DNA from: a virus
Taxonomy: Duplodnaviria > Heunggongvirae > Uroviricota > Caudoviricetes
DNA: 31,280 nucleotides
Direction: 5' to 3' (one strand)
IMG/VR virus record: IMGVR_UViG_3300045988_033906
Location: 1 to 31,280 of that record
Part shown: positions 1 through 21,448 of the stretch, piece after piece
Layout of the letters: each line of letters starts with the position of its first letter
How positions within the stretch are numbered: position 1 is the stretch's first letter
Translations under genes and position numbers: made by a program
Notes under the pieces: generated by a model
The model's input: the letters and a program-made list of their open reading frames with translations, nothing else
Database searches by the model: none
What the model was told of the DNA's origin: nothing

Positions 1-35
1 ACTTCAAGGAACCTTTTGTGAGTCAGGCAACCAGT

Positions 36-209
36 ATGCGAAAACGACACCGATTTAACAGTCGCATGACCCGTATCGTACTGCTCATCAGCTTTATCTT
101 CTTCTTTGGCCGTTTTATCTACTCGTCCGTCGGTGCCTGGCAGCACCATCAGAGCAAAAAAGAAGCTCAGCAATCCACACTCTCCGTCGAATCACCGGTA
201 CAACGTTAG
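36..209 (+). CDS. hypothetical small protein with one hydrophobic segment
   Basis: ORF-track frame 18-209 begins at GTG; first ATG at 36 gives MRKRHRFNSRMTRIVLLISFIFFFGRF... (basic N-terminus then hydrophobic stretch). No homolog recognised, no clear RBS. Confidence 0.25.
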   Translation: MRKRHRFNSRMTRIVLLISFIFFFGRFIYSSVGAWQHHQSKKEAQQSTLSVESPVQR

Positions 210-519
210 CGGTTACCTTCTCCACTTTCACAGAACCTAACGGCACTTCGCTGTCGGATGCTTTTGCTCTTTGGAATTATCAAAGCGGCAGATATTCTTT
301 CATCTTAAATTTTACGTCTTTGTCCTGACTGATGTTTATCCTGTTTGGCTGCGAAATAAATATAAAATTAATATATATGTTGTAATGATATATTTTTATA
401 AATTATTCCCTGCATGAATTTTAATAAATTTAATCTATCCCTTTATACGCAATACATTTACTTTCCTCTTTTGATGATCTTAAATGTCTTATTTTTCGTA
501 ATGTGTATAACAAGGAATA

Positions 520-1038
520 GTGATGAAATTTAAAAAATGTCTTCTGCCTGTGGCAATGTTAGCGTCATTCACTCTGGCAGGATGCCAGTCAAATGCTGAC
601 GATCATGCCGCCGATGTTTATCAAACCGATCAACTGAATACCAAACAAGAAACTAAAACCGTTAATATTATTTCCATTCTTCCCGCAAAAGTTGCCGTAG
701 ACAACTCCCAAAATAAACGGAACGCACAAGCCTTCGGCGCGCTTATTGGCGCAGTCGCTGGCGGTGTTATCGGCCACAACGTCGGTTCTGGCAGCAATTC
801 CGGAACGACGGCAGGGGCAGTTGGCGGCGGAGCTGTAGGCGCGGCAGCGGGTTCTATGGTGAATGATAAAACCTTAGTGGAAGGTGTTTCTTTAACATAT
901 AAGGAAGGCACCAAAGTGTATACCTCTACCCAGGTGGGTAAAGAGTGCCAGTTTACGACAGGTTTAGCCGTTGTTATTACCACAACGTATAACGAAACGC
1001 GTATTCAGCCAAATACTAAATGTCCTGAAAAGAGCTAA
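520..1038 (+). CDS. outer-membrane lipoprotein, glycine-zipper (SlyB/Pcp 17-kDa-antigen-like)
   Basis: Signal peptide with lipobox LAGC (MMKFKKCLLPVAMLASFTLAGCQ), then Gly/Ala-rich glycine-zipper segment (GALIGAVAGGVIGHNVGSGSNSGTTAGAVGGGAVGAAAGS) as in SlyB-family lipoproteins; RBS AAGGAA upstream; AT-rich promoter region 220-519. Confidence 0.7.
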   Translation: MMKFKKCLLPVAMLASFTLAGCQSNADDHAADVYQTDQLNTKQETKTVNIISILPAKVAVDNSQNKRNAQAFGALIGAVAGGVIGHNVGSGSNSGTTAGAVGGGAVGAAAGSMVNDKTLVEGVSLTYKEGTKVYTSTQVGKECQFTTGLAVVITTTYNETRIQPNTKCPEKS

Positions 1039-1053
1039 TAATCAGGAGGAGTC

Positions 1054-1593
1054 ATGAAGAAAGTTTTTCTTTGCGCCATCTTGGCCTCCTTAAGCTATCC
1101 GGCTATCGCCTCATCATTGCAGGATCAACTCTCTGCTGTAGCAGAAGCTGAACAGCAAGGTAAAAATGAAGAGCAAAGGCAGCATGACGAATGGGTCGCG
1201 GAGCGCAACAGGGAAATCCAGCAAGAGAAGCAACGTCGCGCAAATGCCCAGGCCGCCGCTAACAAAAGAGCGGCAACGGCAGCAGCAAATAAGAAAGCTC
1301 GTCAGGATAAACTGGACGCCGAAGCCTCTGCGGACAAAAAACGCGATCAAAGTTATGAAGATGAGCTACGCAGCTTAGAGATTCAGAAACAAAAACTGGC
1401 GCTGGCGAAAGAAGAAGCCCGCGTTAAGCGAGAAAACGAATTTATCGATCAGGAACTGAAGCACAAAGCTGCGCAAACCGATGTGGTGCAATCTGAAGCT
1501 GACGCCAACAGAAATATGACTGAAGGCGGTCGCGATCTGATGAAAAGCGTGGGCAAAGCAGAAGAGAACAAATCGGACAGCTGGTTTAATTAA
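1054..1593 (+). CDS. secreted/periplasmic charged coiled-coil protein (unknown function)
   Basis: Strong RBS AGGAGG 6 nt before ATG; N-terminal signal peptide (MKKVFLCAILASLSYPAIASS); remainder highly charged K/E/Q/A-rich helical repeats; 15 nt downstream of the lipoprotein gene, likely same operon. Confidence 0.6.
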   Translation: MKKVFLCAILASLSYPAIASSLQDQLSAVAEAEQQGKNEEQRQHDEWVAERNREIQQEKQRRANAQAAANKRAATAAANKKARQDKLDAEASADKKRDQSYEDELRSLEIQKQKLALAKEEARVKRENEFIDQELKHKAAQTDVVQSEADANRNMTEGGRDLMKSVGKAEENKSDSWFN

Positions 1594-1668: not shown

Positions 1669-1812
1669 CATAGTGCAGGGATTAAAATCATTCCCACTCA
1701 ATTATTTACGGATAACATAAGCAATTGACTGGCAACAACTTTTAAAACATTTAAATTTTCCATACCGTTTTATATACCGTCACCGGAAATCAGTACCATG
1801 AAAAATGCCATG

Positions 1813-4873: not shown

Positions 4874-4877
4874 AAAC

Positions 4878-7138: not shown

Positions 7139-7176
7139 TTGCAAAACGTGCTGGATAGCAAACAAATTATTTGCTA

Positions 7177-7192: not shown

Positions 7193-7213
7193 TTATTGCA
7201 TGGAGAAGATAAG

Positions 7214-7471: not shown

Positions 7472-7477
7472 AGAAAA

Positions 7478-7493
7478 GGCCGCGAAAGCGGCC
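7478..7493 (-). terminator. rho-independent terminator (minus strand; may also stop the + strand moron)
   Basis: GGCCGC GAAA GCGGCC hairpin; on the minus strand it is followed by TTTTCTTTAT; lies between the 46-aa minus-strand ORF and the + strand 85-aa gene stop (7471). Confidence 0.55.
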
Positions 7494-7494
7494 T

Positions 7495-7506
7495 GTGACA
7501 TGTCAC
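7495..7506. repeat. 12-bp perfect palindrome GTGACATGTCAC, copy 1 of 3
   Basis: Identical 12-mer also at 24688-24699 and 27139-27150; here it lies between a stop codon and the terminator hairpin. Confidence 0.5.
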
Positions 7507-7513
7507 GCTCACG

Positions 7514-7654
7514 TTATGACAAACCTATATACCCTGCTACACCAGATAATATCAAAACAACTGCAACAGCAAATTCACCATCACCAATGATACATTTACG
7601 GTTCATAACGCCAAGTGCAACAAGAGCGAACACAACGAGAATAAAAGCAATCAT
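7514..7654 (-). CDS. unannotated 46-aa hydrophobic micro-protein (two predicted TM segments)
   Basis: Below ORF-track size cutoff. ATG at 7654 with AAGGA about 6 nt upstream, immediately after the stop (7664-7666) of the 824-aa gene; translation MIAFILVVFALVALGVMNRKCIIGDGEFAVAVVLILSGVAGYIGLS; followed by the palindrome and terminator. Confidence 0.45.
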   Translation of the reverse strand: MIAFILVVFALVALGVMNRKCIIGDGEFAVAVVLILSGVAGYIGLS

Positions 7655-7663
7655 TTCTCATCC

Positions 7664-10138
7664 TTATTGCGGAGTGACATCCTGCGGTCGCCACCAGTAT
7701 GTCTGATTAAACTCTTTCTTCGAACGTTGCTCCATTTTACGCAAATAGCCTGGTGAAAAATACTCCTGCATCTGGTTAAAGATCATGTGATCGAGAGCCG
7801 CCTTCAAGTACCAGAGATTCGCACCTGGCATCAGCCCCTTCCCAAGCTTAACCAGATCACCACCAGTCTGCTCATTCTTCCCTTCCACAGCATTTAACGG
7901 TATGCCCTGAGCAATCTTCACTACGTCATCAACCAGACCAGCTACCGGGCCAAGCATCGACGCCAGCGCGCCGCTTCCGTACCTAGTGTGATCTGACAAT
8001 AAAAAGTCACCGTAAAGGCCAAGACCACCACCTTTCAGTAGAGCACCAAGCCAAAATTTAGCAGCATCTTCCCCCGTCATCTCGCGAGGATTACGACCAG
8101 ACGCAAGGTCGTTAAGTTGCTGCGACAAAGCGCCAAGAATGGTCGTACTGGCAATAAACGTCGCAATATATGCCGCACGCCCACCAGCAGACGGCATCCC
8201 CATAGCGCGTGACCAGTGACGCATAACAACCGAGATAGGGAACGATTTAAACAGGAAAACACTTCTCGTTAATTCACCTTTCCATGTTCCACGCTGAATA
8301 CCAGAACCGGTTATCAGTTGCTCACGTGCTCCCGGTGTAATAACAGCCATATCAATTTCTTCAGTTACGGCACCGAGCAGTTTACGCATTGCCTCAAATT
8401 TCACGCGTTCAGGCTCACCAAGATGTTTAACTGCTGAATCAGGGATACGCATAATGCTTTCCGGTGTCAGCATCGTATTATTACCGTTCCCCCAGTCCTC
8501 CTGTTGCGCCAGCTTCCATACGCTCCAGTCTGTGTCAGTAATCCCTTTGCTTTTCAGGATACGAAAATCAGAGTCATCGAGGCTACGAAGGTCTGGTGTC
8601 CGTGACACTACTTCTCCCAGGCTTCCCATCATAGTTACGCCATAGGCGCGCTTGTGCGCATCTGACCATGCTGTAAGCCCACTGGCACGCATTACCGCCG
8701 TTGCCGCCCAACGAGACACAGACGGCCCCATATTATCCATCGCCCAGCGGTTAACGCTGCCAAGTAGAGATTCCATCGCCAGACCAGCTCGGCGCGCCCG
8801 CGCAAGCTCAGTACGGTTCGTTGGGTCAATAGCTTCAAGCTGGTTGCGGAATAACTGGTTCATTGGAAGGTTGGTAACCTTCGCAGACAGATACATGGTT
8901 CCAAGATCAGAGAACGATGACAGCAACGCGGATCCGAGTCTGCTGGCAACCAGCCAGTTGCGGATATTGTCAGACCATCGCGCGATGTGCGGATTCGCTA
9001 CAGGCTGTGTCTTTCCGGAAATAAAGTTGTACAGATTCTCTGTGTTGTTCGCCAGCCGCTCGACTTTACCGGTTTTACTCGGGTTAGCTGTTGCCGTTTC
9101 TGCCTTAACCTGATCAAGAAGGGAGCGGAAAACATGATCGGGGTTTGGACCATATGTTTCCACCAGTGCAATATCTTTACTGATACCTTCCAGGTGACCG
9201 ACCATGATTTCCCATAGAGAGCGATCGCCATAAAGTTGCTGATATTGCAGATAGGAATCTGCATCTTTGAAATGTATCTGTCGTGATGCATTACCACGGT
9301 TAGCACGTGCGCCGGAAATTCGCATTCCGGTATCAGTAAGCTTATTCAGCCCACCAGTAGCGATCGTGTTATAAGCCTCTCCAAGAAATGCAGACAACTC
9401 GGCATCGTTCATCAGTTGTCCATCGGCTCGGATATAATATTTGCGATCCAGCTTACCTATAACATCGCTAACCCACTTATCCTTTGATACCGCCCCAACC
9501 TTTTCCATAGAATGATGTTGAGGGATCCCCCAGTTTTCGAGATAGCCAATGTCCCCACCAGCATCATTAAACCGGCGGCGCAGTAGCTCTGTCACTTCTC
9601 TCCACGCCTTAGCACCTTTTCTTGCTTTAGCATTGCCAGTATTTTGCCCCCGCATTTCATATACCAGGTCACGTACGCCCGCTTCATCTTCAAACAGACC
9701 AAAAAAGCGAGGATCAACTGCTTCGAATGCCTCCTGCAATTGACTCAATGCATAATCACGGGTGGCTTTTGTTCTGGATTCAACAGAGAGGAAATTCGAT
9801 TTACCGTCTGCATTAAAAGCAATAGTACGGTTAAGAGCGCCAAGTTTCCCATCAGCCCCTTGATAGCTATTGATAAATTTATCCAATCTCTGACGTGCGG
9901 CTATAGTGAGGGCCACACGACGTTTCTTTAATGCCGCTTCTCGCTGTAATTCTTCAGATGCCAATTGTGCTGCACGATATAGCCGCTCTGATTCGGAAAG
10001 TTGTCTCCACGACATCGTGTCATCACGAGCAATGGAGCGCATATTTCGATAAATGCGGTCTTCAATGTTCTGTATTTCTCGCGCCGTTAACGTGCGCTGC
10101 GCCGCCTGCTGGACCGCTTGTATACATTCCTGTCTCAT
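7664..10138 (-). CDS. internal virion / ejection protein (large)
   Basis: 824 aa; RBS GAGAGG before ATG 10138; last of a run of large genes between tail tubular genes and tailspike, the position of T7 gp15/gp16-type core proteins; no enzymatic motif recognised. Confidence 0.7.
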   Translation of the reverse strand: MRQECIQAVQQAAQRTLTAREIQNIEDRIYRNMRSIARDDTMSWRQLSESERLYRAAQLASEELQREAALKKRRVALTIAARQRLDKFINSYQGADGKLGALNRTIAFNADGKSNFLSVESRTKATRDYALSQLQEAFEAVDPRFFGLFEDEAGVRDLVYEMRGQNTGNAKARKGAKAWREVTELLRRRFNDAGGDIGYLENWGIPQHHSMEKVGAVSKDKWVSDVIGKLDRKYYIRADGQLMNDAELSAFLGEAYNTIATGGLNKLTDTGMRISGARANRGNASRQIHFKDADSYLQYQQLYGDRSLWEIMVGHLEGISKDIALVETYGPNPDHVFRSLLDQVKAETATANPSKTGKVERLANNTENLYNFISGKTQPVANPHIARWSDNIRNWLVASRLGSALLSSFSDLGTMYLSAKVTNLPMNQLFRNQLEAIDPTNRTELARARRAGLAMESLLGSVNRWAMDNMGPSVSRWAATAVMRASGLTAWSDAHKRAYGVTMMGSLGEVVSRTPDLRSLDDSDFRILKSKGITDTDWSVWKLAQQEDWGNGNNTMLTPESIMRIPDSAVKHLGEPERVKFEAMRKLLGAVTEEIDMAVITPGAREQLITGSGIQRGTWKGELTRSVFLFKSFPISVVMRHWSRAMGMPSAGGRAAYIATFIASTTILGALSQQLNDLASGRNPREMTGEDAAKFWLGALLKGGGLGLYGDFLLSDHTRYGSGALASMLGPVAGLVDDVVKIAQGIPLNAVEGKNEQTGGDLVKLGKGLMPGANLWYLKAALDHMIFNQMQEYFSPGYLRKMEQRSKKEFNQTYWWRPQDVTPQ

Positions 10139-10143
10139 TTAAT

Positions 10144-11946
10144 TTAACCTCTCAAGAAACACGCCACAGCGACATCAAACAGGCTGGAATCCTGTATTGC
10201 CTGCTCACTTTCCCTGTTCGCTTCATCCAGTACTTCACGCGCGCTGCGCGATTGTGGATTACCATCATCATCCAGCACGGTGATTATCATGTCCGGAGAT
10301 TCAAGCAGCGAGTCTTCAGCTATACGCAGATCAATATCTCCTGCCGGATCTGCCATCATTTTTTGTTCTGTCTGTTGCAATATCTTACCGGGCTCAAAAG
10401 GAGCTACTTCGTCTGGCGTCCTGACCTCTGCTGTTTTATAGAATGAAACAGCCTGAGTATTAAGTTCACTTTCTGCCTGCTGTCGCCGTGCCAGTTCTGC
10501 TCGAGCTTCAAAAAACTGACCGCCAGGCTCATGCGGTGCCAACGCGTTACGGGAAAATTCCAGGCGTTCTTGTGCCTGCCGGATTCGTTGGTCAATATCG
10601 CGAAGTCTGGCCTGTTTATCTGATCGAGCACGAGATAAAGCCTTACCGCTACCGGTTGGCTCTTCTGCAAGAATTTGTGCGCGCTGTTCAGTGAGATTTT
10701 CAATAATTCGTTGGCTATTAGCGATTTCAGACTGGTAAACCTGTCTATCGCCACGCGGCAAAAGCTGCGCGGCCTGTTCTTCAAGCAACCGATTTTCTAT
10801 AGCGCGCGCCGTTACTCCATCATCTACAGATGACAGAGCCTCATTAACTGCCTGAGACAGCAGACTCCTGTGCCCAGGAATTTCACTGAAAGATGCAGAC
10901 TCAACAATGCTGGCAACGTCTACAGGTCTCCCCTGGCTAACATCAGACATGGCTTTTCGCAGAGCCTGAATGTGCGAATTACGCGAAAGCACGTTGATCG
11001 GAACGCCGGGAGCAATATCAATTTCAGCATGATGAGCGGCATTCGCCGCCAGTGCAGCATCGATATCAACTGGTGAAAAATTTGGTGCGCTTGTAGACTC
11101 GCCGCGAGAGTTAATAAATCTGCCGACACCACCAAACGCCACCCCAAGAACAGCATCAATAGCAATTGCCTGTCGATCCAACACATCATACTGGTTAGCC
11201 ATTTCGCTATAGCCACCATCACGAAGCGTTTTTGCAGTAAGCCCACGCTGTGCCATACCGAACGCAATATTTGTACCTGCGGCATAGGCAATATCTGGCG
11301 TTGCACGTACTGCTGTTGCTGCGGCGCGTCGCACTGAACTTTCACCCGTCCGCGCAAGCTGGGCCGCCACACCTTCCGCCAGCGCACCACCAGCACGTAA
11401 CCCGAGGCTCATAGGGATCAGTGTTCCGGCACCAGCAGTAATACCCTGCACTAATCCCGCTTCCTGCGCCGTCCTGAAATCAACACCCTGTGCTGTCAGC
11501 CGTTCAAACTCAGAAAAACCCTGTAGAGAAGTTACCGCCGCAGCACCTCCGACCGGACCACCGAGCGTTGTACCGACAACAGCCTGCCCTCCCATATCGA
11601 ACAACCCATAAAGGACCTGCCCGGCGGTTCCGGTTGTCGCGGCATCAGGCGTCAGCCGCTTAACCTGCTGCTCTGCTAGTTTTCTCTGCTCGGCAATGTA
11701 TGAAACTGAAGTGTCATTGAGCGAGGTGTTTTCGTTAACAAACTGAGCAATCGGGGATACGATTTTATCCACCCCTGCCCATAGCAACTGATCTGGCTTT
11801 GCCACCAGCCCGGAGTACAAACCAGACAATGCCGCTCCTACAGCATTGTCGAAAAAACCAACATCGCTGTTAAAGCCAGCTGGATTTGATGCTGCTTCGT
11901 CAAGCTGCTGATTCTGGTTTACTGGATTAAGGCCAAAGTAACTCAT
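10144..11946 (-). CDS. internal virion / ejection protein, Gly/Ala-rich with coiled-coil C-terminal part
   Basis: 600 aa; ATG at 11946 overlaps stop of upstream gene (ATGA); position in ejection-protein block. Confidence 0.65.
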   Translation of the reverse strand: MSYFGLNPVNQNQQLDEAASNPAGFNSDVGFFDNAVGAALSGLYSGLVAKPDQLLWAGVDKIVSPIAQFVNENTSLNDTSVSYIAEQRKLAEQQVKRLTPDAATTGTAGQVLYGLFDMGGQAVVGTTLGGPVGGAAAVTSLQGFSEFERLTAQGVDFRTAQEAGLVQGITAGAGTLIPMSLGLRAGGALAEGVAAQLARTGESSVRRAAATAVRATPDIAYAAGTNIAFGMAQRGLTAKTLRDGGYSEMANQYDVLDRQAIAIDAVLGVAFGGVGRFINSRGESTSAPNFSPVDIDAALAANAAHHAEIDIAPGVPINVLSRNSHIQALRKAMSDVSQGRPVDVASIVESASFSEIPGHRSLLSQAVNEALSSVDDGVTARAIENRLLEEQAAQLLPRGDRQVYQSEIANSQRIIENLTEQRAQILAEEPTGSGKALSRARSDKQARLRDIDQRIRQAQERLEFSRNALAPHEPGGQFFEARAELARRQQAESELNTQAVSFYKTAEVRTPDEVAPFEPGKILQQTEQKMMADPAGDIDLRIAEDSLLESPDMIITVLDDDGNPQSRSAREVLDEANRESEQAIQDSSLFDVAVACFLRG

Positions 11947-14456
11947 TGCGGAATATCTCCAGAGAATCTCTGACGCTTCTGTGTCAGATTAAGAACAACG
12001 GGAGAACCATCATCTTTCAGCAGATAACCAGTACCAAGTTTCACCAGGTACTGACTATCGCCGTAACTTTGCAAACCATACTGACCAGGCGGTGTTTTTA
12101 TCCCGGAGCCGACAACTTGTTCATTCCAAGCCTGATTAACCTGCTTATCGAATTGCTCCGCAGACATTCCCCACGGCAAAAGGACATTCCCCATTCCGTT
12201 ATAGTCATGCACGCCACCTGTAGCTACGTTAACAGCCTGTTTCCAGACATCATTGTCAATTTCGCCTGATACCACGCCTTTTTTCGCCATCACACCAGCG
12301 TAATAATCCTTTGCGATCTCGTATGCCATTGATGCCCCCTGAGCGTCACCAGCAAATGCATCCTTCACCATGTCAGAAAACTCAAGGCGAAGATCAGCAT
12401 CTTTAGGCATCGGAATACCTTTCGCATCATCAGTACCTTTACGAGCCGCCGCGCCAGCAAGAATTGTCTGCGCAGCGGTTTCAGGAGACACGGAAACATC
12501 CGGATTAAACCAGTTTTTTTCTGCCAAAATACCACCTGGCTTATCCATCAGTATCCCGGCAACGGCAGCAGATGGAGCGTTGGCACTGATCTGCTGTAGT
12601 GCTGACATATACACCTGCCCACCACCAGTGCTCTGCCTGATGGTATCGAGATATGCTGCCTGTTGGGAAACTGGAGCATCACGAAAGAAAACACCGATCT
12701 GATTGGCCTCATTTTTGGAAAAGAACGTCAGTGGAGTGCCATATGACTTAGCAAGGTCACTGACCTGAGCGGCACGCAAGGCAACGCTCTGTCCAAAGTT
12801 ATCCTTATTGCTCATGTCGATAGGCTTTGCCTGTCCGGCGGCAAGAGAGAACTGCACAGGATCCGATTGCCGCTGCTTTATCACCTGATTTGCAGCCGAA
12901 ACAACGTTGTCATAAAGAGCTGCGCGTGCCGCATACCCCTCCCCTGTCTCACCAGTATCCGGGCGTAATTGCTCAACATATGCTGTAATGCTGCTTGTCG
13001 GCATGTTGCGGAAAGAGCCTATATACTGTCCGGCGATTTGCGTATTTCTGAACTCGGTATATCGCAGGTTTCCTTCTCTGACTCCATAAGCTGCAATAAA
13101 ATCAGCCTCACCAGGTGGGTTAGGAAATTCAACGCCACGCATATACGCAGATGTCGCATCGCGAACTTGGCTGTCAATCATCGTTTTATATTCAGCCTGC
13201 TGCTGCCGACGCAGTTGATCCGCCTGTCGCATAAAACTTGCCTGCGCCTCAGGAGATGCCGCATCGAATGCTGCATTACCGGTATAGCGTTTGGTGTTGG
13301 TTGGAATTGTTGATAAACCAAGTGCTGCACTGACACCAGCAGTTAACTGCTGATCACTGTATGGCTGGCTACCGTTCTCATGATGGATAATGGCTGCACA
13401 AAGCGCCTTCAGGGTATCAGGATTAGATGCATCGAGAGGCTCATCAGCAGAAACGCCAAGTTGTTCGCACACTGCTTTGATATACGACATAGTGTCATTT
13501 TTATCAGTAGGCGGTGCCCAGCGATTAATTATCTCGCTGACGGTATCGATACCCTGCCGCTGATACGACATCAGGTTACGCCCTAATGCACGAATCCCGT
13601 GCTCAGGTGTTTCGAATTTAGCAAATCGACCATCATCACCGGTCTGGCCTACCCACGGATTAGTTTTGCTGTATTCGAGATTTCCTGGGTTATTGTTGCG
13701 TATGCCACGGACACGCTCGGAAGAGCCACTATCTGCTACAGCACGGCGAGCTCCAGAAGCAGTATCACTTAATTCGCCATTACTTTGGATGAATGCGCTC
13801 GCATTGTTTGCCGACCACTGTGACAATGCAGCATCAGCAACCTTCTCTTTAAACTCGACTTTCTTGGCCTGGATTTGCTCGTCGCTCCAGCCATGCGCAA
13901 TGCCGTAATCCTCAATTTGCTGGAAAGTTTGCTTATTAGCCAATACGTATGCGGCGTTGTCGCCATACAATGCTGCGGCATTTTTACCATTGTTCAGCAG
14001 CGTAGCCTGAAACTGGCCTTCTTCGTATGCATTTATTTGCCCTATCTCGTGCCGCCCGGCCTGTGTAGTGAACTGAATGCGCTGCTGCTGCGCCTGCTGC
14101 ATGAAAGCATTACGAGCCTGTTCATCCGGCAGCGACATAGCCAGTTGCTCGACCTGGGCATCAAACTGCTGCGTATACTCCTGACCTTTTCCAATAGCAT
14201 TTTTCCCTTTCAGGTTAAGCAAACCTGTTTCAGGGTTATTCAGCAAATCGCTGCTTATCTGACTGAGGTTAAGAGATGCCTCCTGAGCCAGAGCGATATT
14301 GGCACGCTGTTTTGCCTGACCAAAAACATCAATTGCCTCTTCCCCTGCCCGAACAAAAGCATCACCAATACCTGGCTGAGAAAACGTCTGCAAGCCTGCT
14401 GACTGAACTCCACGACTCTCAACCTGACGTCCGGATACTGTTGGTACGACTGGCAT
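11943..14456 (-). CDS. internal virion / ejection protein (837 aa); contains conserved GIRNNNPGNLEY motif region, possibly cell-wall-active
   Basis: ORF-track start 14531 is GTG; in-frame ATG at 14456 has strong RBS GGAGG and overlaps the upstream stop (TAATG), so 14456 is the likelier start. Size and position match T7 gp15/gp16-like core proteins; enzymatic assignment of the NNPGN motif is unverified. Confidence 0.7.
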   Translation of the reverse strand: MPVVPTVSGRQVESRGVQSAGLQTFSQPGIGDAFVRAGEEAIDVFGQAKQRANIALAQEASLNLSQISSDLLNNPETGLLNLKGKNAIGKGQEYTQQFDAQVEQLAMSLPDEQARNAFMQQAQQQRIQFTTQAGRHEIGQINAYEEGQFQATLLNNGKNAAALYGDNAAYVLANKQTFQQIEDYGIAHGWSDEQIQAKKVEFKEKVADAALSQWSANNASAFIQSNGELSDTASGARRAVADSGSSERVRGIRNNNPGNLEYSKTNPWVGQTGDDGRFAKFETPEHGIRALGRNLMSYQRQGIDTVSEIINRWAPPTDKNDTMSYIKAVCEQLGVSADEPLDASNPDTLKALCAAIIHHENGSQPYSDQQLTAGVSAALGLSTIPTNTKRYTGNAAFDAASPEAQASFMRQADQLRRQQQAEYKTMIDSQVRDATSAYMRGVEFPNPPGEADFIAAYGVREGNLRYTEFRNTQIAGQYIGSFRNMPTSSITAYVEQLRPDTGETGEGYAARAALYDNVVSAANQVIKQRQSDPVQFSLAAGQAKPIDMSNKDNFGQSVALRAAQVSDLAKSYGTPLTFFSKNEANQIGVFFRDAPVSQQAAYLDTIRQSTGGGQVYMSALQQISANAPSAAVAGILMDKPGGILAEKNWFNPDVSVSPETAAQTILAGAAARKGTDDAKGIPMPKDADLRLEFSDMVKDAFAGDAQGASMAYEIAKDYYAGVMAKKGVVSGEIDNDVWKQAVNVATGGVHDYNGMGNVLLPWGMSAEQFDKQVNQAWNEQVVGSGIKTPPGQYGLQSYGDSQYLVKLGTGYLLKDDGSPVVLNLTQKRQRFSGDIPQ

Positions 14457-15001
14457 TATAATCCTCCGGGTAATCTGGTTCCTGCTGCTGCCCCGATTGG
14501 CGCAGGAGTGCTTTGAGTAAACGGACTCCACGTCCCACCAAACATCTGGTACGCACCGTATGCCTTCAGAGGCGCAGTGAGCAATGTTGTTGCTGCTCCC
14601 ACATTCCCCTGTTTACGGGCTGAACTGGCTTCTGCTTTATAGTTGGCAGCCTGAACCTGATAACCGTAAGCCTCGCGTTGCGCGTTATTCACCGTCGTCA
14701 GCGAATCAAGAACGCCAAACTGGGCAGTGTCGCCAAATATATCCAGCGCGTTACCTGTAGATAAATCAGCGCCGGTAGCCCCCATTGTCGCCGCCTGTGT
14801 ACCAAGCCGCTGTCGGGTCTCTCTGCGTCGTTGCTCAGCTTCAGCGTTACCTCTGTTTATTGCATCATTTGCCTGAGCTGTGGCTATATCTGCGTTCGCT
14901 TCTGCAACCTTCGAGGCATACTTTCCCTGTTGGTACTGGGTGTATGCCTGAATGCCACTCATGGCGAGCATTGCGCCACCAGCAATAACCGGATCGCACA
15001 T
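14456..15001 (-). CDS. internal virion protein (T7 gp14-like by size and position)
   Basis: 181 aa; RBS GGAGAG before ATG 15001; stop/start overlaps on both sides (TAATG). Confidence 0.6.
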   Translation of the reverse strand: MCDPVIAGGAMLAMSGIQAYTQYQQGKYASKVAEANADIATAQANDAINRGNAEAEQRRRETRQRLGTQAATMGATGADLSTGNALDIFGDTAQFGVLDSLTTVNNAQREAYGYQVQAANYKAEASSARKQGNVGAATTLLTAPLKAYGAYQMFGGTWSPFTQSTPAPIGAAAGTRLPGGL

Positions 15002-15465
15002 TATTTTCTCTCCATGTGAAATCTGTGGAAATTAAGACCAAGAGCACCATAAGGCGCGGCTTCTTCAAGCCTGAATCCAAGCCAGTGCAGCCATGCTTTG
15101 GCAACATGGTTTCGCTCGTCGACGTAGTTTTCCAGGCGCGGATAAACTGCCAGCATCTGCTGCAATACAGGGCGGCAGTGGCGAAGAAATGTCTTCTGAT
15201 ATTTTTCAATACGGCTGGTTCCTACCAACCATGGCGTACCATTGCCACCGATCATTGACGCCGGAGATACGCCAAACATGGTTACCAGTTCTCCGTTCGC
15301 AAATCCTGACCAGGCCATAGTCGCAGTGCGAAGACCAACACGCAGCGCATCTTCGGTAGTCATCAGCGATACCGCATACAGTTCGTCAATATCAGCCTGA
15401 CGAACATCCGGCAAAATCATCTGAAGATGCTCTTCGGTAGCGGGAATAATTTGAACATCAATCAT
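15001..15465 (-). CDS. internal virion / assembly protein (T7 gp13-like by size and position)
   Basis: 154 aa; ATG 15465 overlaps stop of tubular B gene (ATGA). Confidence 0.55.
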   Translation of the reverse strand: MIDVQIIPATEEHLQMILPDVRQADIDELYAVSLMTTEDALRVGLRTATMAWSGFANGELVTMFGVSPASMIGGNGTPWLVGTSRIEKYQKTFLRHCRPVLQQMLAVYPRLENYVDERNHVAKAWLHWLGFRLEEAAPYGALGLNFHRFHMERK

Positions 15466-17936
15466 CAGAATCCCCCAACAGTAAGGCGAGGAATAACGGC
15501 AAGAACAGACAGCGGCAACGGGTCAAGCTGACGGATTCTTACGCGTCCGTTTTTACCCCAGTTACTGTCCAGTTTCACTTCTACTTTTCCGGTAGCGTCA
15601 TCAACAGGATCATCGTAGAACTCGAATTCACGCTGTGGATATTCGTACCATTTACCGCCGGGCGTAGTCGCCCAGATGCCGCGACTGGCATTCACAACCA
15701 GAGTAACGGACGGGATCACCTGTTTTTTGTCCAGCAGCGTTTCCTGTCCGTTAATGTTGATATCCAGTGTTTCGAATTCAGCAGTTATTGGCAGGCCGAT
15801 GTGCACTACAGCCCCCGGAGATTCCAGCGTGACGGCACCTCCGGAAACCACTTTCTGTGGTTCCACGTTCGCATCAGAGAGAATGTTTACGGTCTGGCCT
15901 TCAAGATGAGACAGGCCTCCAAATGTCCGGCGCGCCATCTGCCAGTTCGTGGTGGCCACATTCCTGAGGGATAGCGGGACGTTCCTGTTAGCACGAACCA
16001 CTACTGCGGTATTACTGGTTACAGAAATAATGTCGCAACGTAATTCTTTTGACACTTCATCGCCAGTATCAGGATCAGTTCCGGTATAAGGGAACTGTAG
16101 TTGCGCGCCGACATCACTACTGGTGAAGTACGCACCACCAGAAACACTGATTGTATATTCCGCACGGTAATCCCATTCACCAGAACCACCAGTGATGGTC
16201 ATCGTTCTGTCAGACGTATTTCTTCCATCATAGCTAAGGCCAGAATCAACAAAGAAAGCATCTTCATCGCTGGTAAATAAACGACTGGACAGTCTCTCGA
16301 TGTATCTCACTGTTTGCCCGTTAACGGTTCTGTTAACGACGAAATACACCGCATCTTCATTGCCTTCGCTGATACTGCATGTGCTTTCATATTTTCCGGT
16401 ACTGGATTGTGGTGCCCATGCAAAAACCTGCTGATCACGCAAATAGGTCATCACCAGTAATTTACCGTCATCACGAATGCAGAAGGCGCTGGAGTAAGGG
16501 ACAATCGAGAAGCACCAGTCAACAATGCTGTGCTTCTGAAAAAGATGATTGGCAAGGATAGTCAGGTCGTTCCCCTGATAGCCGTCAACATCGAATGAAT
16601 AGGCCAGATCACGGACAACACTGCCTTTCTCCTGGACGAACAGAGCAATATTCGCCACAGCAATTGGTGGGACGTTGCTCGAGCCATTTGATCCCTGAGA
16701 GCTGAATGCAAATGATGATGGGGTTAACACTTTGTTCTGGTCGCCGGTGATGACGTACTCACCTCCGGAAGTCAGTGCCACCAGCGAACCGACATCAATC
16801 AGGTGGCGGATCTCATTAACCTGACGCCCGGCATAGGTGTAGATAATTCTGTCGTCATCCTGCGTAGGATTGCTTTTGCCAAAATCCTTATAATCCCCGG
16901 TACGGCTGGCCCAGATAGTCTGAGGGAACGCAGTCGATGCGGCGAAGTAAAGACGTTGTTGATAATAAACAACAGTGCCAGGATAACCATTAACACTGTT
17001 CCAGGCATATTTAGCCCATTTATAGCTGGCATTATCCTCGCCAACTACCTGCGAAGGGATATAGGAAATCACCTCGGCAGTTGCAGTAGTTCCATTTGCA
17101 GCAGTGATACGGGCAATGCCAAAACCACTGTGCAGATATTCCCACTCAATGCCAGTATCATCATCACCGGATCCGCCCCAGCCATCCCATGATGTGCCTT
17201 CTGTATGCGAAGGGCGCAAAGTGCCTGTTTTGCCTGCTGTAACGGCGCGATAGTAGTTACTGTCTGCACGGCGAATATCGCCAATCGACGTACTCTTACT
17301 GGTTTCCCATACCTGCACTGAATCCACTGCAGGCTGTTCCAGATAGAACAATTTGCCTACCTGCTCCGCGCCAAAAATAGAGGCGCTTGCCGTTAACGTA
17401 ATTGTCCCGGTGCTGGCGCTGGCATAAACCGTCACTGACTCGTCAATATTGATATCTTCAAATGGCCCGTTCTTCGTTACCACATCAACCAGTTGCCAGT
17501 TGTCATGCGCATAGCGACGCAACTCTTTCGGCGGGTATGCCGGATGAACCAGCGTAAGCACGTCTGCGCTTTGCGTGAATTTAATTCGGAACAGATCGGC
17601 TTCAGTATATGGAGTGGCAATTTCATAAATAACATTGCTGCTGTTCAGCACCAACGCACCATCTTTGATAACGCGCATGTACTGGTGTCCGAACTCCAGA
17701 GCATAGGTCTGAACCGTCGAGAACTGGAACGGGATCAGGCGGCATTTCCGATTTTGGTATTTGGCGGCACCGACAAAACGCGTACCAGGTCGATTCTCAA
17801 CGCCGCCATACTGCCGCACGATAAAGTTATCGCACTTGCGCAATGCCACCTGGTACTTCGCCATGTCGATACGTCCGTACAACGACGGTCCAATCTCACC
17901 ACCAGCAAAGCTGGGCTGGATCCAACTGATAGCCAT
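15465..17936 (-). CDS. tail tubular protein B-like (nozzle)
   Basis: 823 aa; N-terminus MAISWIQPSFAGGEIGPS...GVENRPGT parallels T7 gp12 N-terminus (MALISQSIKNLKGGISQQP...GLQKRPPL); follows the gp11-like gene with ATGA overlap. Confidence 0.75.
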   Translation of the reverse strand: MAISWIQPSFAGGEIGPSLYGRIDMAKYQVALRKCDNFIVRQYGGVENRPGTRFVGAAKYQNRKCRLIPFQFSTVQTYALEFGHQYMRVIKDGALVLNSSNVIYEIATPYTEADLFRIKFTQSADVLTLVHPAYPPKELRRYAHDNWQLVDVVTKNGPFEDINIDESVTVYASASTGTITLTASASIFGAEQVGKLFYLEQPAVDSVQVWETSKSTSIGDIRRADSNYYRAVTAGKTGTLRPSHTEGTSWDGWGGSGDDDTGIEWEYLHSGFGIARITAANGTTATAEVISYIPSQVVGEDNASYKWAKYAWNSVNGYPGTVVYYQQRLYFAASTAFPQTIWASRTGDYKDFGKSNPTQDDDRIIYTYAGRQVNEIRHLIDVGSLVALTSGGEYVITGDQNKVLTPSSFAFSSQGSNGSSNVPPIAVANIALFVQEKGSVVRDLAYSFDVDGYQGNDLTILANHLFQKHSIVDWCFSIVPYSSAFCIRDDGKLLVMTYLRDQQVFAWAPQSSTGKYESTCSISEGNEDAVYFVVNRTVNGQTVRYIERLSSRLFTSDEDAFFVDSGLSYDGRNTSDRTMTITGGSGEWDYRAEYTISVSGGAYFTSSDVGAQLQFPYTGTDPDTGDEVSKELRCDIISVTSNTAVVVRANRNVPLSLRNVATTNWQMARRTFGGLSHLEGQTVNILSDANVEPQKVVSGGAVTLESPGAVVHIGLPITAEFETLDININGQETLLDKKQVIPSVTLVVNASRGIWATTPGGKWYEYPQREFEFYDDPVDDATGKVEVKLDSNWGKNGRVRIRQLDPLPLSVLAVIPRLTVGGF

Positions 17937-18541
17937 CAGGACAACCTCGCAATGGTAAACTCATCAACCGGTGGCTGTGGTTCCTGTGATTCATTCTGGC
18001 TATGCGAGCCAGCACTAAGAATCACGCGATTGTACATATTGAGGGCAAACGTACCGAGGTCTGCATTCCCAGTCAGCGCCATGTTAATAGCTGCCGCAAG
18101 ACGCCAGGCCAACGCCTCCATAAAAATGGCATCAAACATGTTCACATCTGTAACGCGAGAGACATACTTGAGCCATGCCTGAGGCTGGTCTGTGTAGATC
18201 AACTTTCCTGTTCCGTTGGTGTCTGCACCAACTTCGTACTGAACGCGCATTGCTGCTGTTGGATTGCGTACACCAGGAAGCATAATTTCAGTAATGCGCA
18301 GACAATCGGACGGGTACTGGTATGCGTATTCCCAGTCTGGCGGCGGATTGTTCGTATCTGCAAGCGTCACGCGTTTGGTAGCAAAGTTCCAGTCAAAATC
18401 AGAAAGCACAGCATCACGGCAGGCCTCAAAGTGCAGCGAACATTCCCCCGCTTCCTTGCTGGCTTCCGTCAGGCTGTTAATGCTGCGGCTGTTGCCAATA
18501 TTGGACAGCGCACGATTACAGATCTCTACTACAGAGGCCAT
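17936..18541 (-). CDS. tail tubular protein A-like (adaptor/gatekeeper)
   Basis: ORF-track start 18544 is GTG; ATG at 18541 overlaps upstream stop. 201 aa; N-terminal region (EICNRALSNIGNSRSINSL...DWNF) resembles T7 gp11 (AVNDILASIGEPPVSTL...GWTF). Confidence 0.7.
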   Translation of the reverse strand: MASVVEICNRALSNIGNSRSINSLTEASKEAGECSLHFEACRDAVLSDFDWNFATKRVTLADTNNPPPDWEYAYQYPSDCLRITEIMLPGVRNPTAAMRVQYEVGADTNGTGKLIYTDQPQAWLKYVSRVTDVNMFDAIFMEALAWRLAAAINMALTGNADLGTFALNMYNRVILSAGSHSQNESQEPQPPVDEFTIARLS

Positions 18542-18864
18542 CACTCACCTCCGTTACCGTACAGAGTTTCAGCCGCTGATTTTTCTACATCCCCGGAAAC
18601 AGGAGCGATCGCCATATCAGTGATCTGCAGATCGGCGCTGCGATTAACGCCATCGTCAGTTTCTCTGGCAGACAGGCCTCGAATAACAGCCTTTGCAGTT
18701 ATCATCACTTCTGTTCCGACGCCCTGAGGTTGCGCCTTCAGCTTATTCAATGTGTCGTTATTAAGAGTGATGCACAGCCCCCACGGGTATTCATCGCGAG
18801 TTCTGGTTTCTCCGCTCTCATCCTGGTAGCTGTCAGTGCCGGTTTTGAGGTTTACGAGTTCCAT
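18541..18864 (-). CDS. hypothetical virion-module protein
   Basis: ORF-track start 18870 is GTG; ATG at 18864 has RBS AGGAG 6 nt upstream; 107 aa; no homolog recognised. Confidence 0.5.
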   Translation of the reverse strand: MELVNLKTGTDSYQDESGETRTRDEYPWGLCITLNNDTLNKLKAQPQGVGTEVMITAKAVIRGLSARETDDGVNRSADLQITDMAIAPVSGDVEKSAAETLYGNGGE

Positions 18865-18882
18865 ATACACTCCTGCAATAAA

Positions 18883-18896
18883 GGGGCCGAAGCCCC
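18883..18896 (-). terminator. short GC hairpin with UUCG loop followed by U-tract (possible attenuating terminator after capsid genes)
   Basis: On minus strand GGGGC TTCG GCCCC then TTTATTG; located between the 111-aa gene stop and the next RBS. Stem is only 5 bp, so weak. Confidence 0.3.
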
Positions 18897-18914
18897 TTGT
18901 CTGATCCGCGAGGC

Positions 18915-19250
18915 TTACACGCCCAGTTCTTTACGCTTATCTGCGATCTTCTCGCGGAGCGTTTCGGCTTTGGCGTTATGGTGTGGCTTCTCGTTAAAGA
19001 GCAATTCGTACTCTTCACGGAGCTTATCCAGTTCACCATCATCTGACACATCGTTGATGATTTTGGTGCTGGTTGCTGCCATTGACACCTTTCCTGCAAC
19101 TTTTGCTTTTGCCTGTCTGGCTGCATCGTTAACAGGTTCCAGTGCGCTACCAGGCTCACCTTCGTATTCGATTTCTGCCCCCTCCGGCCACAGAGTGTTA
19201 TGGATATGAGAGAGGCGCAGAACGCGGTATCTTGGTTTCTCACCTGACAT
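18915..19250 (-). CDS. hypothetical virion-module protein
   Basis: ORF-track start 19259 is GTG; ATG at 19250 has RBS AAGGTGA; 111 aa, acidic, no homolog recognised. Confidence 0.5.
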   Translation of the reverse strand: MSGEKPRYRVLRLSHIHNTLWPEGAEIEYEGEPGSALEPVNDAARQAKAKVAGKVSMAATSTKIINDVSDDGELDKLREEYELLFNEKPHHNAKAETLREKIADKRKELGV

Positions 19251-19260
19251 CGATATCACC

Positions 19261-19698
19261 TTAACCAGTTACTTTTGAGCGGATCGGATACGGCGTATTG
19301 GCATCAACATCAAGACTGATACCAGCAGTGAATTCGCCAGCCGTTAGTGGGCCAGTTGCGACGGAGTAGTTAACACGCAGATATCGCTGAACACCGGCAG
19401 GCACCTTTGCAGAAACAACTCGTTTACCTGCTGTCAGGGCGGTCTTTGCCAGTGCGCCACTATCATAAATAGTGGTCCATGAGCTGTTATTCTCACTCGT
19501 CTGCAACTGGATGTTTACAGTTGCATCACCGCTTGCCGCGGCGGCTGTGTTAACCAGCGCCCAAAACTCAAGCGGGTAACCCACGCCGATATCACGACGT
19601 TTTCCGTCAATTGGACCGAGATCGATTACGTCAGTAGAAGCCGCGGTATTCGTAACCGCCTGAGCTTCGGAGAACATCAACAGTTTGTCGGTGATCAT
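19261..19698 (-). CDS. putative capsid decoration / cement protein
   Basis: 145 aa, Ala/Thr/Gly-rich beta-type composition; RBS GGAGAAAG; immediately downstream of the major capsid gene (position-based call). Confidence 0.45.
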   Translation of the reverse strand: MITDKLLMFSEAQAVTNTAASTDVIDLGPIDGKRRDIGVGYPLEFWALVNTAAAASGDATVNIQLQTSENNSSWTTIYDSGALAKTALTAGKRVVSAKVPAGVQRYLRVNYSVATGPLTAGEFTAGISLDVDANTPYPIRSKVTG

Positions 19699-19749
19699 CT
19701 TCTTTCTCCATTAGTGGGTCTGTTACGACCCACAGGTTAATAACAGGCG

Positions 19750-20742
19750 TTACACCACGCGGGCTTCTGTTTCCAGAAGCGCATCAGTCTCACGGATTGG
19801 TACACCACGGAATGAAGTCCACCACTCGCCTTCTGTCTCTTTTACGCTGATCGCCAGAGATGTTTTCTCCAGAGATTGCAGATCAAGAGCCTGGCCTACA
19901 GTGCGGTTCATGTAGAACACCGGGCGGCCCATGCCACGGTTTGGAATGCGATGCAGTGCTTTAACCATCAACTTCGCAATATTTGCTGCAGAGGAAGGTT
20001 CTGAAAGATTGCTGACATCGATGTTTGCAATGCGAACGACATAACGCCAGTCACGCAGAGCAAGTCCGTTATCCCATTTGTAATGGGTACGGTAGCCTTC
20101 GTACTTGCCGCCATTAGCATCTTCCAGTGTCACCTGGCCTTTATCTTCCATCTGAATGCCAGCCTTCTGCCCTTTCGGGAAGATGCCATGCACGGTGTTT
20201 TCGCCCCACACCACTAACCAGATTGAGGTGTTATCTGTACCCGTGCCACCAGCATCAATGATGTTCTGAGCATTACCCGCAGACAGGCTGGAATAGCGGG
20301 AGGACAGTCCCATAAACTGCTGAGGGTTAACGCTGGAATCACCATAAAACAGCGTCTGCGCCATCTGCTGATTCATCGCTTCAATAAATGCGCGGTCTTC
20401 AGACAGGCGGAATTCGGCGGTATTGCCGTTCAGATCAGCCAGTGACTTATCGACTTCAGCATAGGTTTCCAGCATGCCAACGGAATCGGTTACCTGCACT
20501 GTGGTTGATTTGCTTGGCTGTACGCCATAGTTCAGCAAACGCCAGGTAGCTGAAGGTAAACCAGAACGAATGGTGGTTCGGTGTCCGGTAGGAAGGTTCC
20601 CTTCGACAAAAGGCATATCCTGAAGGATCGGGTTAGTTTGACCGAGAAGCTCGATAATCTTATCGACTTTCCCGTTTGGATCGACGCGCTTACCCCAGTC
20701 AGCCAGCGTTAGCGCAGTTAAGCCTTTAACAGCCATTGTCAT
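19750..20742 (-). CDS. major capsid protein
   Basis: 330 aa; strong RBS GAGAGGAA; directly after scaffolding gene and before decoration gene; size and order typical of podovirus major capsid proteins. Confidence 0.8.
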   Translation of the reverse strand: MTMAVKGLTALTLADWGKRVDPNGKVDKIIELLGQTNPILQDMPFVEGNLPTGHRTTIRSGLPSATWRLLNYGVQPSKSTTVQVTDSVGMLETYAEVDKSLADLNGNTAEFRLSEDRAFIEAMNQQMAQTLFYGDSSVNPQQFMGLSSRYSSLSAGNAQNIIDAGGTGTDNTSIWLVVWGENTVHGIFPKGQKAGIQMEDKGQVTLEDANGGKYEGYRTHYKWDNGLALRDWRYVVRIANIDVSNLSEPSSAANIAKLMVKALHRIPNRGMGRPVFYMNRTVGQALDLQSLEKTSLAISVKETEGEWWTSFRGVPIRETDALLETEARVV

Positions 20743-20750
20743 TTCCTCTC

Positions 20751-21446: not shown

Positions 21447-21448
21447 GA

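Follow-up and report, generated by a model that had tools for sequence, protein, structure and literature searches.

The prophage and its Chi sites

The window, that is, the whole stretch of 31,280 nucleotides analyzed here, is, judging by its sequence, a part of the E. coli chromosome joined to a phiV10/epsilon15-like (Uetakevirus) prophage, which is integrated between yfgI and guaA. The chromosomal flank (1..1593, + strand) carries yfgG, yfgH and yfgI at 99% identity and was found in all 5426 E. coli genomes searched; in MG1655 the same three genes occupy positions 2,629,290-2,630,865, also on the + strand, and are followed by guaA. Thus, the flank fixes both the identity of the host and the orientation of the prophage on the chromosome, and the E. 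coli-type host proposed in the earlier note is supported. The phage homology begins at about 1686, and the prophage/host junction is marked by the att core ATTGAGTGGGAATGATT (1686..1702, - strand), an exact match to the attP core published for the phage vB_EcoP_ZX5 (PMC9782041). The region 7600-26300 is 97.5-98.1% identical, over 98-100% of its length, to phiV10, ZX5, PAS61 and the O157 typing phages 9 and 10, and approximately 288 E. coli genomes have a place covering at least 80% of it. Hence the assignment of the prophage to Uetakevirus rests both on the virion module, which is collinear with these phages at the nucleotide level, and on the shared attachment site. The presumed direction of packaging is read relative to the genes of the small (26246-26920, - strand, a Terminase_2 match) and large (24774-26249, - strand) terminase subunits; the large subunit had neither a Pfam match nor a PDB sequence match.

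It is established, and restated in the Chi literature, that the E. coli RecBCD enzyme reads the octamer GCTGGTGG (Chi), and the E. coli flank beside the att core places the prophage DNA in an enteric host with the matching RecBCD. In an exhaustive scan of both strands we observed eight Chi sites, all of them on the - strand (seen as CCACCAGC on the + strand, starting at 8181, 9555, 11387, 11802, 14976, 16778, 17899 and 20246), and none on the + strand. The six coordinates listed in the earlier note are all exact, but the list was incomplete, the sites at 11802-11809 and 16778-16785 having been missed. The location in virion genes holds for all eight sites, each lying on the sense strand of its gene.

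Two sites fall in the phiV10 p20-like virion structural gene (7664-10138), both read as GCT GGT GGG: one at 8181..8188 (Ala651-Gly-Gly), the other at 9555..9562 (Ala193-Gly-Gly). Both are common to phiV10, while Tyrion has GCC GGT GGG and GCC GGT GGC, respectively, at these places. The p19-like gene (10144-11946) also contains two sites, of which the one at 11387..11394 (GCT GGT GGT, Ala185-Gly-Gly) is kept in phiV10 and Tyrion, and the one at 11802..11809, in the frame GGG CTG GTG GCA (Gly46-Leu-Val-Ala), is common to phiV10 and has one mismatch in Tyrion (GGC CTG GTG GCA). The site at 14976..14983 (GCT GGT GGC, Ala7-Gly-Gly), in the p17-like internal virion protein gene (14456-15001, T7 gp14 family), is again common to phiV10, and epsilon15 and Tyrion have different amino acids there. 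In the p15-like tail protein gene (15465-17936), the site at 16778..16785, in the frame TCG CTG GTG GCA (Ser384-Leu-Val-Ala), is shared, of the relatives compared, with phiV10 only. The second site of this gene, at 17899..17906 (GCT GGT GGT, Ala11-Gly-Gly), occurs in none of the three relatives compared: each of phiV10, epsilon15 and Tyrion reads GCC GGT GG at this place and is one synonymous C/T difference away from Chi. The last site, at 20246..20253 in the major capsid protein gene (19750-20742, Pfam GP7), is read as GCT GGT GGC (Ala164-Gly-Gly) and is kept in phiV10 and epsilon15, with GCA GGC GGT in Tyrion. An extended or repeated motif around Chi was rejected, since the flanks of the eight sites are unrelated, and hence the sites are independent octamers rather than copies of a repeat.

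The density of Chi in the window is about one per 3.7-3.9 kb. The exhaustive scan found no site in 20254-31280, the 11 kb that contain the protease, portal, terminase and replication genes, and in phiV10 the nearest Chi upstream of the terminase end is likewise 11 kb away. The sites stay away from the regions next to pac and from the Rec module.

Strand bias, location and number of the sites

Shuffling of synonymous codons within each gene yields averages of 1.65-1.71 Chi sites for the - strand and 0.08 for the + strand, favoring the former about 20:1. No amino-acid context able to encode Chi exists in the + strand genes of the window; there are only eight, all requiring rare codons, in the late-gene antisense, and from zero to three in the opposite-strand genes of the relatives. 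Thus, all Chi sites are one-stranded because all Chi-capable codon contexts sit on one strand, and the co-orientation of Chi demonstrates no adaptation here. The earlier note was right that the + strand is devoid of GCTGGTGG, but this absence carries no information, as codon shuffling reproduces it. The relatives behave in the same way: the numbers of Chi on the late and the other strand are 8/0 in phiV10, 6/0 in epsilon15 and 9/1 in Tyrion, in all four phage genomes each Chi is found in the sense strand of the gene that contains it, and the only opposite-strand Chi of Tyrion follows the coding strand of its gene and not a genome-wide orientation. More generally, presence of all sites on one strand is no evidence of function when the Chi-capable codon contexts are themselves one-stranded.

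Clustering of the sites in 8181-20253 was also considered as a possible signal and rejected, since 65-74% of Chi generated by shuffling fall in the same interval, due to the Ala/Gly-rich proteins encoded there; the chance that all eight would do so is 0.03-0.09.

As for the number of sites, the earlier note's chance estimate of approximately half a site per strand agrees with the dinucleotide shuffle (n = 100), where the mean for both strands together was 1.11, the maximum was four, and eight sites were reached in 0/100 cases. However, this is the wrong null for coding DNA. Under the synonymous-codon shuffle, eight sites were reached in 0/3000 cases in one run and in 1/2000 in another (Poisson P = 3.3e-4 under the synonymous-codon expectation), and when the dinucleotides at codon junctions were preserved as well, 1.99 sites were expected and eight were reached in 0/2000 cases. 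Thus, synonymous-codon shuffling, by which the earlier note proposed to check its observation, reproduces the strand bias but not the count, and the excess of Chi over codon-aware nulls is real, about 4-5 fold.

Chi is only the 7th (P = 3e-4) when octamers are ranked blindly, and about nine octamers are expected at that P by chance. Among the enriched words there is a Chi-like one, ACTGGTGG (6 observed vs 1.15 expected), and the enrichment of ACTGGTGG, TGCTGGTG and CTGGTGGT is equal to that of Chi; the most over-represented octamer of the window (9 observed vs 1.37 expected) is a word discussed by Zheng et al. 2025. The case for Chi rests on the motif having been specified a priori and on the context controls, and not on the blind ranking.

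Codon contexts in the window, relatives, lambda and the host

The proteins of the window permit a synonymous Chi in 22 sense contexts, and eight of them, about one third, actually carry it. The respective fractions in the relatives are 8/26, 6/18 and 9/27, whereas in lambda 0/22 contexts are used (Fisher P = 0.004). Similarly, NCT GGT GGN is used in 13/27 contexts in the window compared to 0/22 in lambda (P = 1.4e-4), and lambda under-uses CTG GTG (6 observed vs 10.7 expected). Each of phiV10, epsilon15 and Tyrion exceeds its own shuffle expectation for Chi. At the same time, most Chi positions are not common to these genomes, and the sites turn over rapidly.

Three codon pairs of the window, GCT GGT, GGT GGN and CTG GTG, show an enrichment of about 2-fold each. 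For the first of these pairs, usage may be compared with and without the eighth base that completes Chi. Before Gly, where Chi is completed, GCT GGT is the choice for Ala-Gly in 6/8 cases, compared to 4/17 before Val, Ala, Asp or Glu codons and 5/40 elsewhere; the share rises from 24% to 75% only where the eighth base completes Chi. When the window, epsilon15 and Tyrion are pooled, the figures are 17/28 against 9/65 (P about 1e-5). If the codon-pair estimates are made without the Chi sites, 1.7 Chi are expected in the eight Ala-Gly-Gly contexts of the window, compared to the six observed (P = 0.002). Hence the excess appears to be specific to the full octamer. This comparison of one codon pair with and without the completing base provides an internal control for selection on the full octamer and, together with the caution about one-stranded contexts, is the useful addition of the present analysis, which is methodological.

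The same shuffle applied to a 50-kb segment of MG1655 yields 5.3 expected Chi compared to 18 observed, with 18/62 contexts used. The density and the excess of Chi in the window are host-like and not above those of the host core DNA, and may therefore also reflect passive host-like evolution. The reading frames are not alike, as Ala-Gly-Gly accounts for 6/8 phage Chi and for 1/18 sense-strand host Chi (P = 8e-4), and in the host the Leu-Val frame dominates.

A separate observation concerns the Ala-Gly-Gly contexts of the virion genes, which are nearly saturated with Chi in the window (6/8) and carry it in 17/28 cases across three diverged genomes.

Possible causes of the Chi excess

The excess of Chi in this phage group is already published, and the understanding of the interplay between RecBCD and phages is not changed by the window. 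For eight Epsilon15-like genomes, Bobay, Touchon & Rocha (2013 PLoS Genet, PMC3784561) reported the median Chi O/E of 2.69 and the density of 0.2 per kb, comparable to that of the host; these phages have a recombinase, no RecBCD inhibitor was found in them, and the excess was read as protection from RecBCD. The window shows the over-representation of Chi characteristic of the Rec+Inh- class of that study (8 vs 1.65-2.0). Strand or orientation, reading frame and individual Chi sites, which were not examined there, are analyzed here. Thus, we have a single-genome illustration of the published rule that temperate enterobacterial phages sparing RecBCD have Chi at the host level or higher, and phages with Gam or Abc2 have none.

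The window ORFs scanned, which do not cover the early-left operon lying outside the window, contain neither Gam (PF06064) nor Abc2 (PF11043), and neither domain was found in the early-left ORFs of phiV10, where p38 and p39 have no family match. The same phiV10 region encodes a fusion of PDDEXK (DUF3799) and RecT, and in epsilon15 and Tyrion the RecE-like and RecT genes are separate; as the relatives encode their own RecE/RecT, their recombination does not depend on RecBCD. By analogy with these relatives, the prophage would have RecE/RecT functions and lack Gam and Abc2.

We consider selection on the Chi octamer in a temperate phage without a known RecBCD inhibitor to be the most likely cause, and on balance we favor it. 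RecBCD is then the presumed selective agent, and the "RecBCD evasion" of the earlier note is likewise a presumed function. The enzyme would enter replicating or packaging phage DNA, or the chromosome of the lysogen, at a free double-strand end and, moving against late transcription, would meet each Chi from the 3' side; at Chi the degradation would stop and RecA would be loaded, so that the DNA would be spared and channelled into recombination. If packaging runs in the lambda and P22 manner, with terS first and the head genes after it, the eight sites would be in the active orientation. All eight lie on the top strand once the map is drawn with the terminase genes on the left, and this is the orientation defined as active for lambda. 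No usable report on the DNA ends of Uetakevirus, epsilon15 or phiV10 was found in the literature. The distribution of the sites fits a role in the protection of the pac end poorly, and no concentration of Chi near the packaging site or replication origin was observed in the window. Also against this reading are the host-level density and excess of Chi, the enrichment of Chi-like words, the low blind rank, the RecE/RecT of the relatives and the Tyrion Chi that follows its coding strand. Altogether, the excess is real and probably selected, and it was known before for this phage group.

The excess might instead originate at the level of the chromosome, with Chi kept or gained during the prophage state, by leading-strand RecBCD-RecA repair of collapsed forks, or by drift to host-like oligonucleotides; we regard this as unlikely. 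The prophage resides at yfgI|guaA, at 2.63 Mb on the MG1655 map, which we take to be between the terminus and oriC, in the left replichore. With the replication direction taken from this map position, the - strand of the window is the leading strand, and all eight Chi are in the predominant orientation of the chromosome. (An attempt to derive the direction from the local host flank was abandoned, the GC skew of -0.006 over 21.7 kb being too weak and Chi being distributed 3 vs 1 in favor of the expected strand.) KOPS (GGGNAGGG) is polarized in the same way in the window, as reported for lambdoid prophages by Bobay, Rocha & Touchon (2013 Mol Biol Evol, PMC3603311). That study dealt with leading-strand polarized motifs of E. 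coli prophages, namely KOPS and matS rather than Chi (on the leading strand of the window, KOPS 5 vs 0 and Chi 8 vs 0); it found the replication polarity to be significant in lambdoid prophages and not significant in Myoviridae, the sole non-lambdoid group tested, and did not test epsilon15-like prophages separately. The host-like density and O/E of the window also agree with a chromosomal cause, and resident prophages are expected to accumulate Chi as the chromosome does (Zheng, Casjens, Davidson, Amundsen & Smith 2025 Genome Res, PMC12315714). However, virion isolates (phiV10, ZX5, PAS61 and the O157 typing phages) have the same sites, lambda-type phages, which are also long-term residents, have no Chi, the preference for Ala-Gly-Gly argues against simple convergence with the host, and eight sites in 30 kb add little where the chromosome has one Chi per 4.6 kb (PMC12315714).

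Less likely still, the sites could be a by-product arising without any selection on Chi, from virion proteins rich in Ala, Gly, Leu and Val combined with a preference for GCT, GGT, CTG, GTG and pyrimidine-ending codons before G. The reproduction of both the strand bias and the location by shuffling, the 2-fold enrichment of the codon pairs, the enrichment of ACTGGTGG, TGCTGGTG and CTGGTGGT to the same degree as Chi, the invariable position on the sense strand and the rapid turnover of the sites are all consistent with this. On the other hand, the count exceeds both codon-aware nulls, the excess persists in the Ala-Gly-Gly contexts after removal of Chi from the codon-pair estimates, the increase in GCT GGT is tied to the eighth base, and lambda, with the same host, uses none of its contexts. 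Moreover, in published large panels the Chi content tracks the presence of RecBCD inhibitors and not codon usage, and the comparison with lambda was used against the codon-usage explanation in PMC12315714 as well. We assign a small chance to yet another reading, by which the selection on Chi in this podovirus group takes an unusual route and serves an unusual purpose: rather than protecting the packaging end, the array might make the virion module a zone of RecBCD-RecA recombination, in which resident prophages would more readily swap structural modules, or Chi might assist fork repair in the lysogen despite the phage's own RecET.

Selection on the octamer, the reading we prefer, has close parallels with some differences in arrangement. 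Chi clusters of lambdoid phages are pac/cos-proximal (PMC3784561, PMC12315714), and occupy the stretch from the replication origin to cos, which precedes the structural genes (PMC3784561), whereas the sites of the window are within the virion genes, with none in the stretch from replication to terminase. Zheng et al. (PMC12315714) described co-oriented Chi arrays in temperate coliphages, for example LLS, and also in phage P1, the active orientation being the top strand with the terminase genes at the left; in this arrangement LLS has 20 vs 3 sites in favor of the top strand, and the window has 8 vs 0. In both LLS-type phages and the window, TGCTGGTG is the next most enriched octamer. At the same time, LLS-type phages lack a Rec module, their Chi density, 2.5 times that of the host, comes with clustering at the right end, and their RecBCD dependence was demonstrated by experiment, whereas the phage group of the window has RecE/RecT-type functions and Chi at the host density with no terminal clustering. 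In this respect it resembles the minority class of PMC12315714, which combines a Rec module with Chi, the latter being absent near the Rec module.

Identity of the DNA and its Chi sites

Over positions 7600-26300 the window is 97.5-98.1% identical, over 98-100% of the length, to Escherichia phages phiV10, vB_EcoP_ZX5, PAS61 and phiv142-3 and to the O157 typing phages 9 and 10; for Enterobacter phage Tyrion and Salmonella phage epsilon15 the identity is 77-81%. All of these phages belong to the genus Uetakevirus. About 288 complete E. coli genomes have a place that covers 80% or more of this segment. The E. coli core genes yfgG, yfgH and yfgI (1-1593), the phage homology and a 17-bp att core (1686-1702), the same as the core published for ZX5 (PMC9782041), together indicate that the window is a junction between chromosome and prophage. 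Past the junction come lysis genes, an acyltransferase, a tail fibre, virion genes, terminase and some of the replication region, all inverted with respect to the phiV10 record; the integrase-recET-repressor segment falls outside the window.

An exact-match search of both strands of the whole window found the Chi octamer GCTGGTGG eight times on the - strand (starts at 8181, 9555, 11387, 11802, 14976, 16778, 17899 and 20246) and never on the + strand. The earlier note had listed six of these with exact coordinates, overlooking 11802-11809 and 16778-16785, and had correctly placed them in the virion genes: all eight are on the sense strand of late genes, one each in the major capsid and p17-like internal virion protein genes, and two each in the p15-like tail protein, p19-like and p20-like genes. 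Chi of this phage group is mainly found in the Ala-Gly-Gly frame (GCT GGT GGN, 6/8 in the window), the other two sites being read as Leu-Val (xxG CTG GTG Gxx). No common sequence was found in the flanks of the eight sites, hence they are independent octamers.

Strand and number under coding constraints

The chance expectation of half a site per strand, as given in the earlier note, is right for random DNA, since a dinucleotide-preserving shuffle yields 1.11 sites on both strands together (maximum 4 in 100 shuffles). Synonymous codons shuffled within each gene yield 1.65-1.71 sites on the - strand and 0.08 on the + strand, and eight sites were reached in none of 3000 shuffles in one run and in one of 2000 in another; if the dinucleotide across each codon junction is also retained, the expectation is 1.99, and eight sites were never reached (0/2000). 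This shuffling, which the same note had named as its own refutation test for a codon by-product, thus fully reproduces the strand bias and does not reproduce the count: coding constraints account for the strand, not for the number.

The late genes contain 22 contexts able to encode Chi synonymously (8 Ala-Gly-Gly and 14 x-Leu-Val-x), of which 8 are used. There are no such contexts in the + strand genes, and each of the eight in the late-gene antisense requires rare codon combinations; hence the absence of Chi from the other strand, proposed previously as a functional signal, is uninformative, and the sites are co-oriented because the genes are.

Ala-Gly is written GCT GGT in 6 of 8 cases before a Gly codon, where Chi is completed, vs 4/17 before other codons starting with G (non-GG) and 5/40 before the remaining codons (P = 0.0013). 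With the window, epsilon15 and Tyrion pooled, the fractions are 17/28, 9/65 and 19/165 (P about 1e-5; two or three sites are shared among the genomes). Codon-pair estimates made without the Chi sites predict 1.7 Chi among the eight Ala-Gly-Gly contexts, vs 6 observed (P = 0.002). Selection on the complete octamer thus seems to underlie the excess.

That the sites are a pure by-product of coding, with no selection on Chi, seems quite unlikely given a count above both codon-aware shuffles, although the strand bias is reproduced by synonymous shuffling and a blind ranking of all octamers places Chi only seventh, with TGCTGGTG (9 vs 1.37 expected), CTGGTGGT (8 vs 1.43) and ACTGGTGG (6 vs 1.15) as enriched. 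TGCTGGTG is also a companion word in the Chi-rich phages LLS and P1, where it was interpreted as mutational traffic into and out of Chi (Zheng et al. 2025, PMC12315714). The Chi-like ACTGGTGG occurs on the late (-) strand at 7691, 7860, 9160, 9351, 12622 and 16186; the copy at 9160 (GCA CTG GTG GAA) has as its Tyrion homologue a true Chi (GCG CTG GTG GAG), a pair consistent with sites mutating into and out of Chi.

Relatives, host DNA and possible causes

Chi counts on the late and the other strand are 8/0 in phiV10, 6/0 in epsilon15 and 9/1 in Tyrion, in each above its own shuffle expectation of 1.9-3.3. The positions are mostly unlike: epsilon15 shares only the capsid site and Tyrion only the p19 residue-185 site. 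At several of the Tyrion sites the amino acids have changed, and the site at 17899 is found in the window only, being GCC, one synonymous C/T change away, in phiV10, epsilon15 and Tyrion. The number of sites, rather than their positions, is maintained among the relatives. In lambda, which has the same host and carries the RecBCD inhibitor Gam, there are no Chi vs 2.0 expected and none of 22 capable contexts is used; NCT GGT GGN is used in 13/27 contexts in the window vs 0/22 in lambda (P = 1.4e-4). The CTG GTG codon pair is under-used in lambda. In the phage, GCT makes up 27% of Ala, GGT 38% of Gly, CTG 37% of Leu and GTG 26% of Val codons, the latter two being higher in lambda (46% and 36%).

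Under the same shuffle null, a 50-kb MG1655 segment has 18 Chi vs 5.3 expected, and the 21.7-kb flank of the integration site has 4 vs 2.2. Host DNA uses 18/62 Chi-capable contexts, and the prophage (8/22; one Chi per 3.7-3.9 kb) is not above it (P = 0.59); thus its Chi content is host-like, not richer. In MG1655, yfgG-yfgI adjoin guaA on the + strand at 2.63 Mb; with oriC at about 3.93 Mb and dif at about 1.59 Mb, this is on the left replichore. Hence the window - strand is the leading strand, and all eight Chi are in the orientation predominant in the chromosome. A motif search for KOPS (GGGNAGGG) found no copy on the + strand and five on this one (7836, 11773, 12937, 14343 and 26959), a polarity that lambdoid prophages are reported to have as well (PMC3603311); for a G-rich motif on a G-rich coding strand, this bias may be a composition effect, as for Chi. 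A cause acting in the prophage state or in the chromosome would agree with the eight Chi and five KOPS all on the leading strand of the lysogen and with host-like density and context usage, but we consider it doubtful, as the ratio of Ala-Gly-Gly to Leu-Val frames is 6:2 in the phage vs 1:17 in the host (P = 8e-4; 18 Chi on the sense strand of genes in sampled E. coli core DNA).

When the map is drawn with terminase on the left, the top strand carries all eight Chi. In lambda, Chi so oriented is active for RecBCD that enters at the end freed by terminase (Zheng et al. 2025, PMC12315714), and the eight sites would thus be active for the presumed lambda-like packaging direction. The large terminase had no match in Pfam or among PDB sequences, and a literature search found no paper on the DNA ends of this phage family. 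Transcription, lysogen replication and presumed packaging share one direction and coding constraints force the strand, so these data cannot separate them. All Chi lie within 8181-20253, but so do 65-74% of the shuffle-generated sites, hence this clustering is not significant. The 11 kb that run from the capsid gene past terminase into the replication genes gave no Chi in a scan of both strands, and the nearest Chi upstream of the terminase end of phiV10 lies 11 kb off, in the integrase gene. This distribution differs from the origin-to-cos clustering in lambdoid phages (Bobay et al. 2013, PMC3784561) and from the right-end cluster of LLS (Zheng et al. 2025, PMC12315714), and it fits poorly with protection of the packaging end. 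It resembles a minority class in the latter study, whose members combine Chi with a Rec module and lack Chi around that module.

We lean towards selection for Chi that would act through interplay with RecBCD in the phage life cycle; neither of the other causes excludes it or the other. RecBCD evasion, as suggested in the earlier note, is plausible and already published for this group, though the strand bias, being reproduced by coding constraints, is no evidence for it. A Pfam scan of the phiV10 early-left operon found a PDDEXK+RecT fusion and neither of the RecBCD inhibitors Gam and Abc2. The finding is thus one more case of a known pattern in a phage group already described for it: for eight 'Epsilon15-like' temperate genomes with a recombinase, Bobay, Touchon and Rocha (2013, PMC3784561) reported a median O/E of 2.69 (Z 2.19), found no RecBCD inhibitor and considered Chi a likely protection from RecBCD, as in Rec+Inh- lambdoid phages; orientation and reading frame, not analysed there, are analysed here for the window. 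Zheng, Casjens, Davidson, Amundsen and Smith (2025, PMC12315714) described Chi arrays with strong co-orientation in temperate coliphages, showed RecBCD dependence experimentally for LLS, and rejected codon usage as the explanation through comparison with lambda.

Other features of the prophage and its site

A low-GC block at 3782-7018 (GC 0.34-0.40 vs about 0.50 elsewhere) comprises an O-antigen acyltransferase gene (3782-4873, +; Acyl_transf_3) and a tail fibre gene (4907-7018, -; 703 aa, no Pfam match), and phiV10 aligns over only 42% of window 1-7700, at about 86% identity. Together these suggest a swapped host-range and serotype-conversion cassette. A tRNA-Arg gene (anticodon TCT; 24070-24146, +) separates the large terminase gene from the portal gene, runs counter to the late genes and overlaps the start region of a small - strand ORF (24076-24327) annotated as p04 in phiV10. 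E. coli OkiPb01680 (21800-41800 of the sampled stretch L004) carries a related prophage at the same yfgI site, with the same lysis cassette and additional YafO-family toxin, Arc-family and antirepressor genes; an ISEc8 (IS66-family) element interrupts its transglycosylase virion gene, so this prophage is probably defective.
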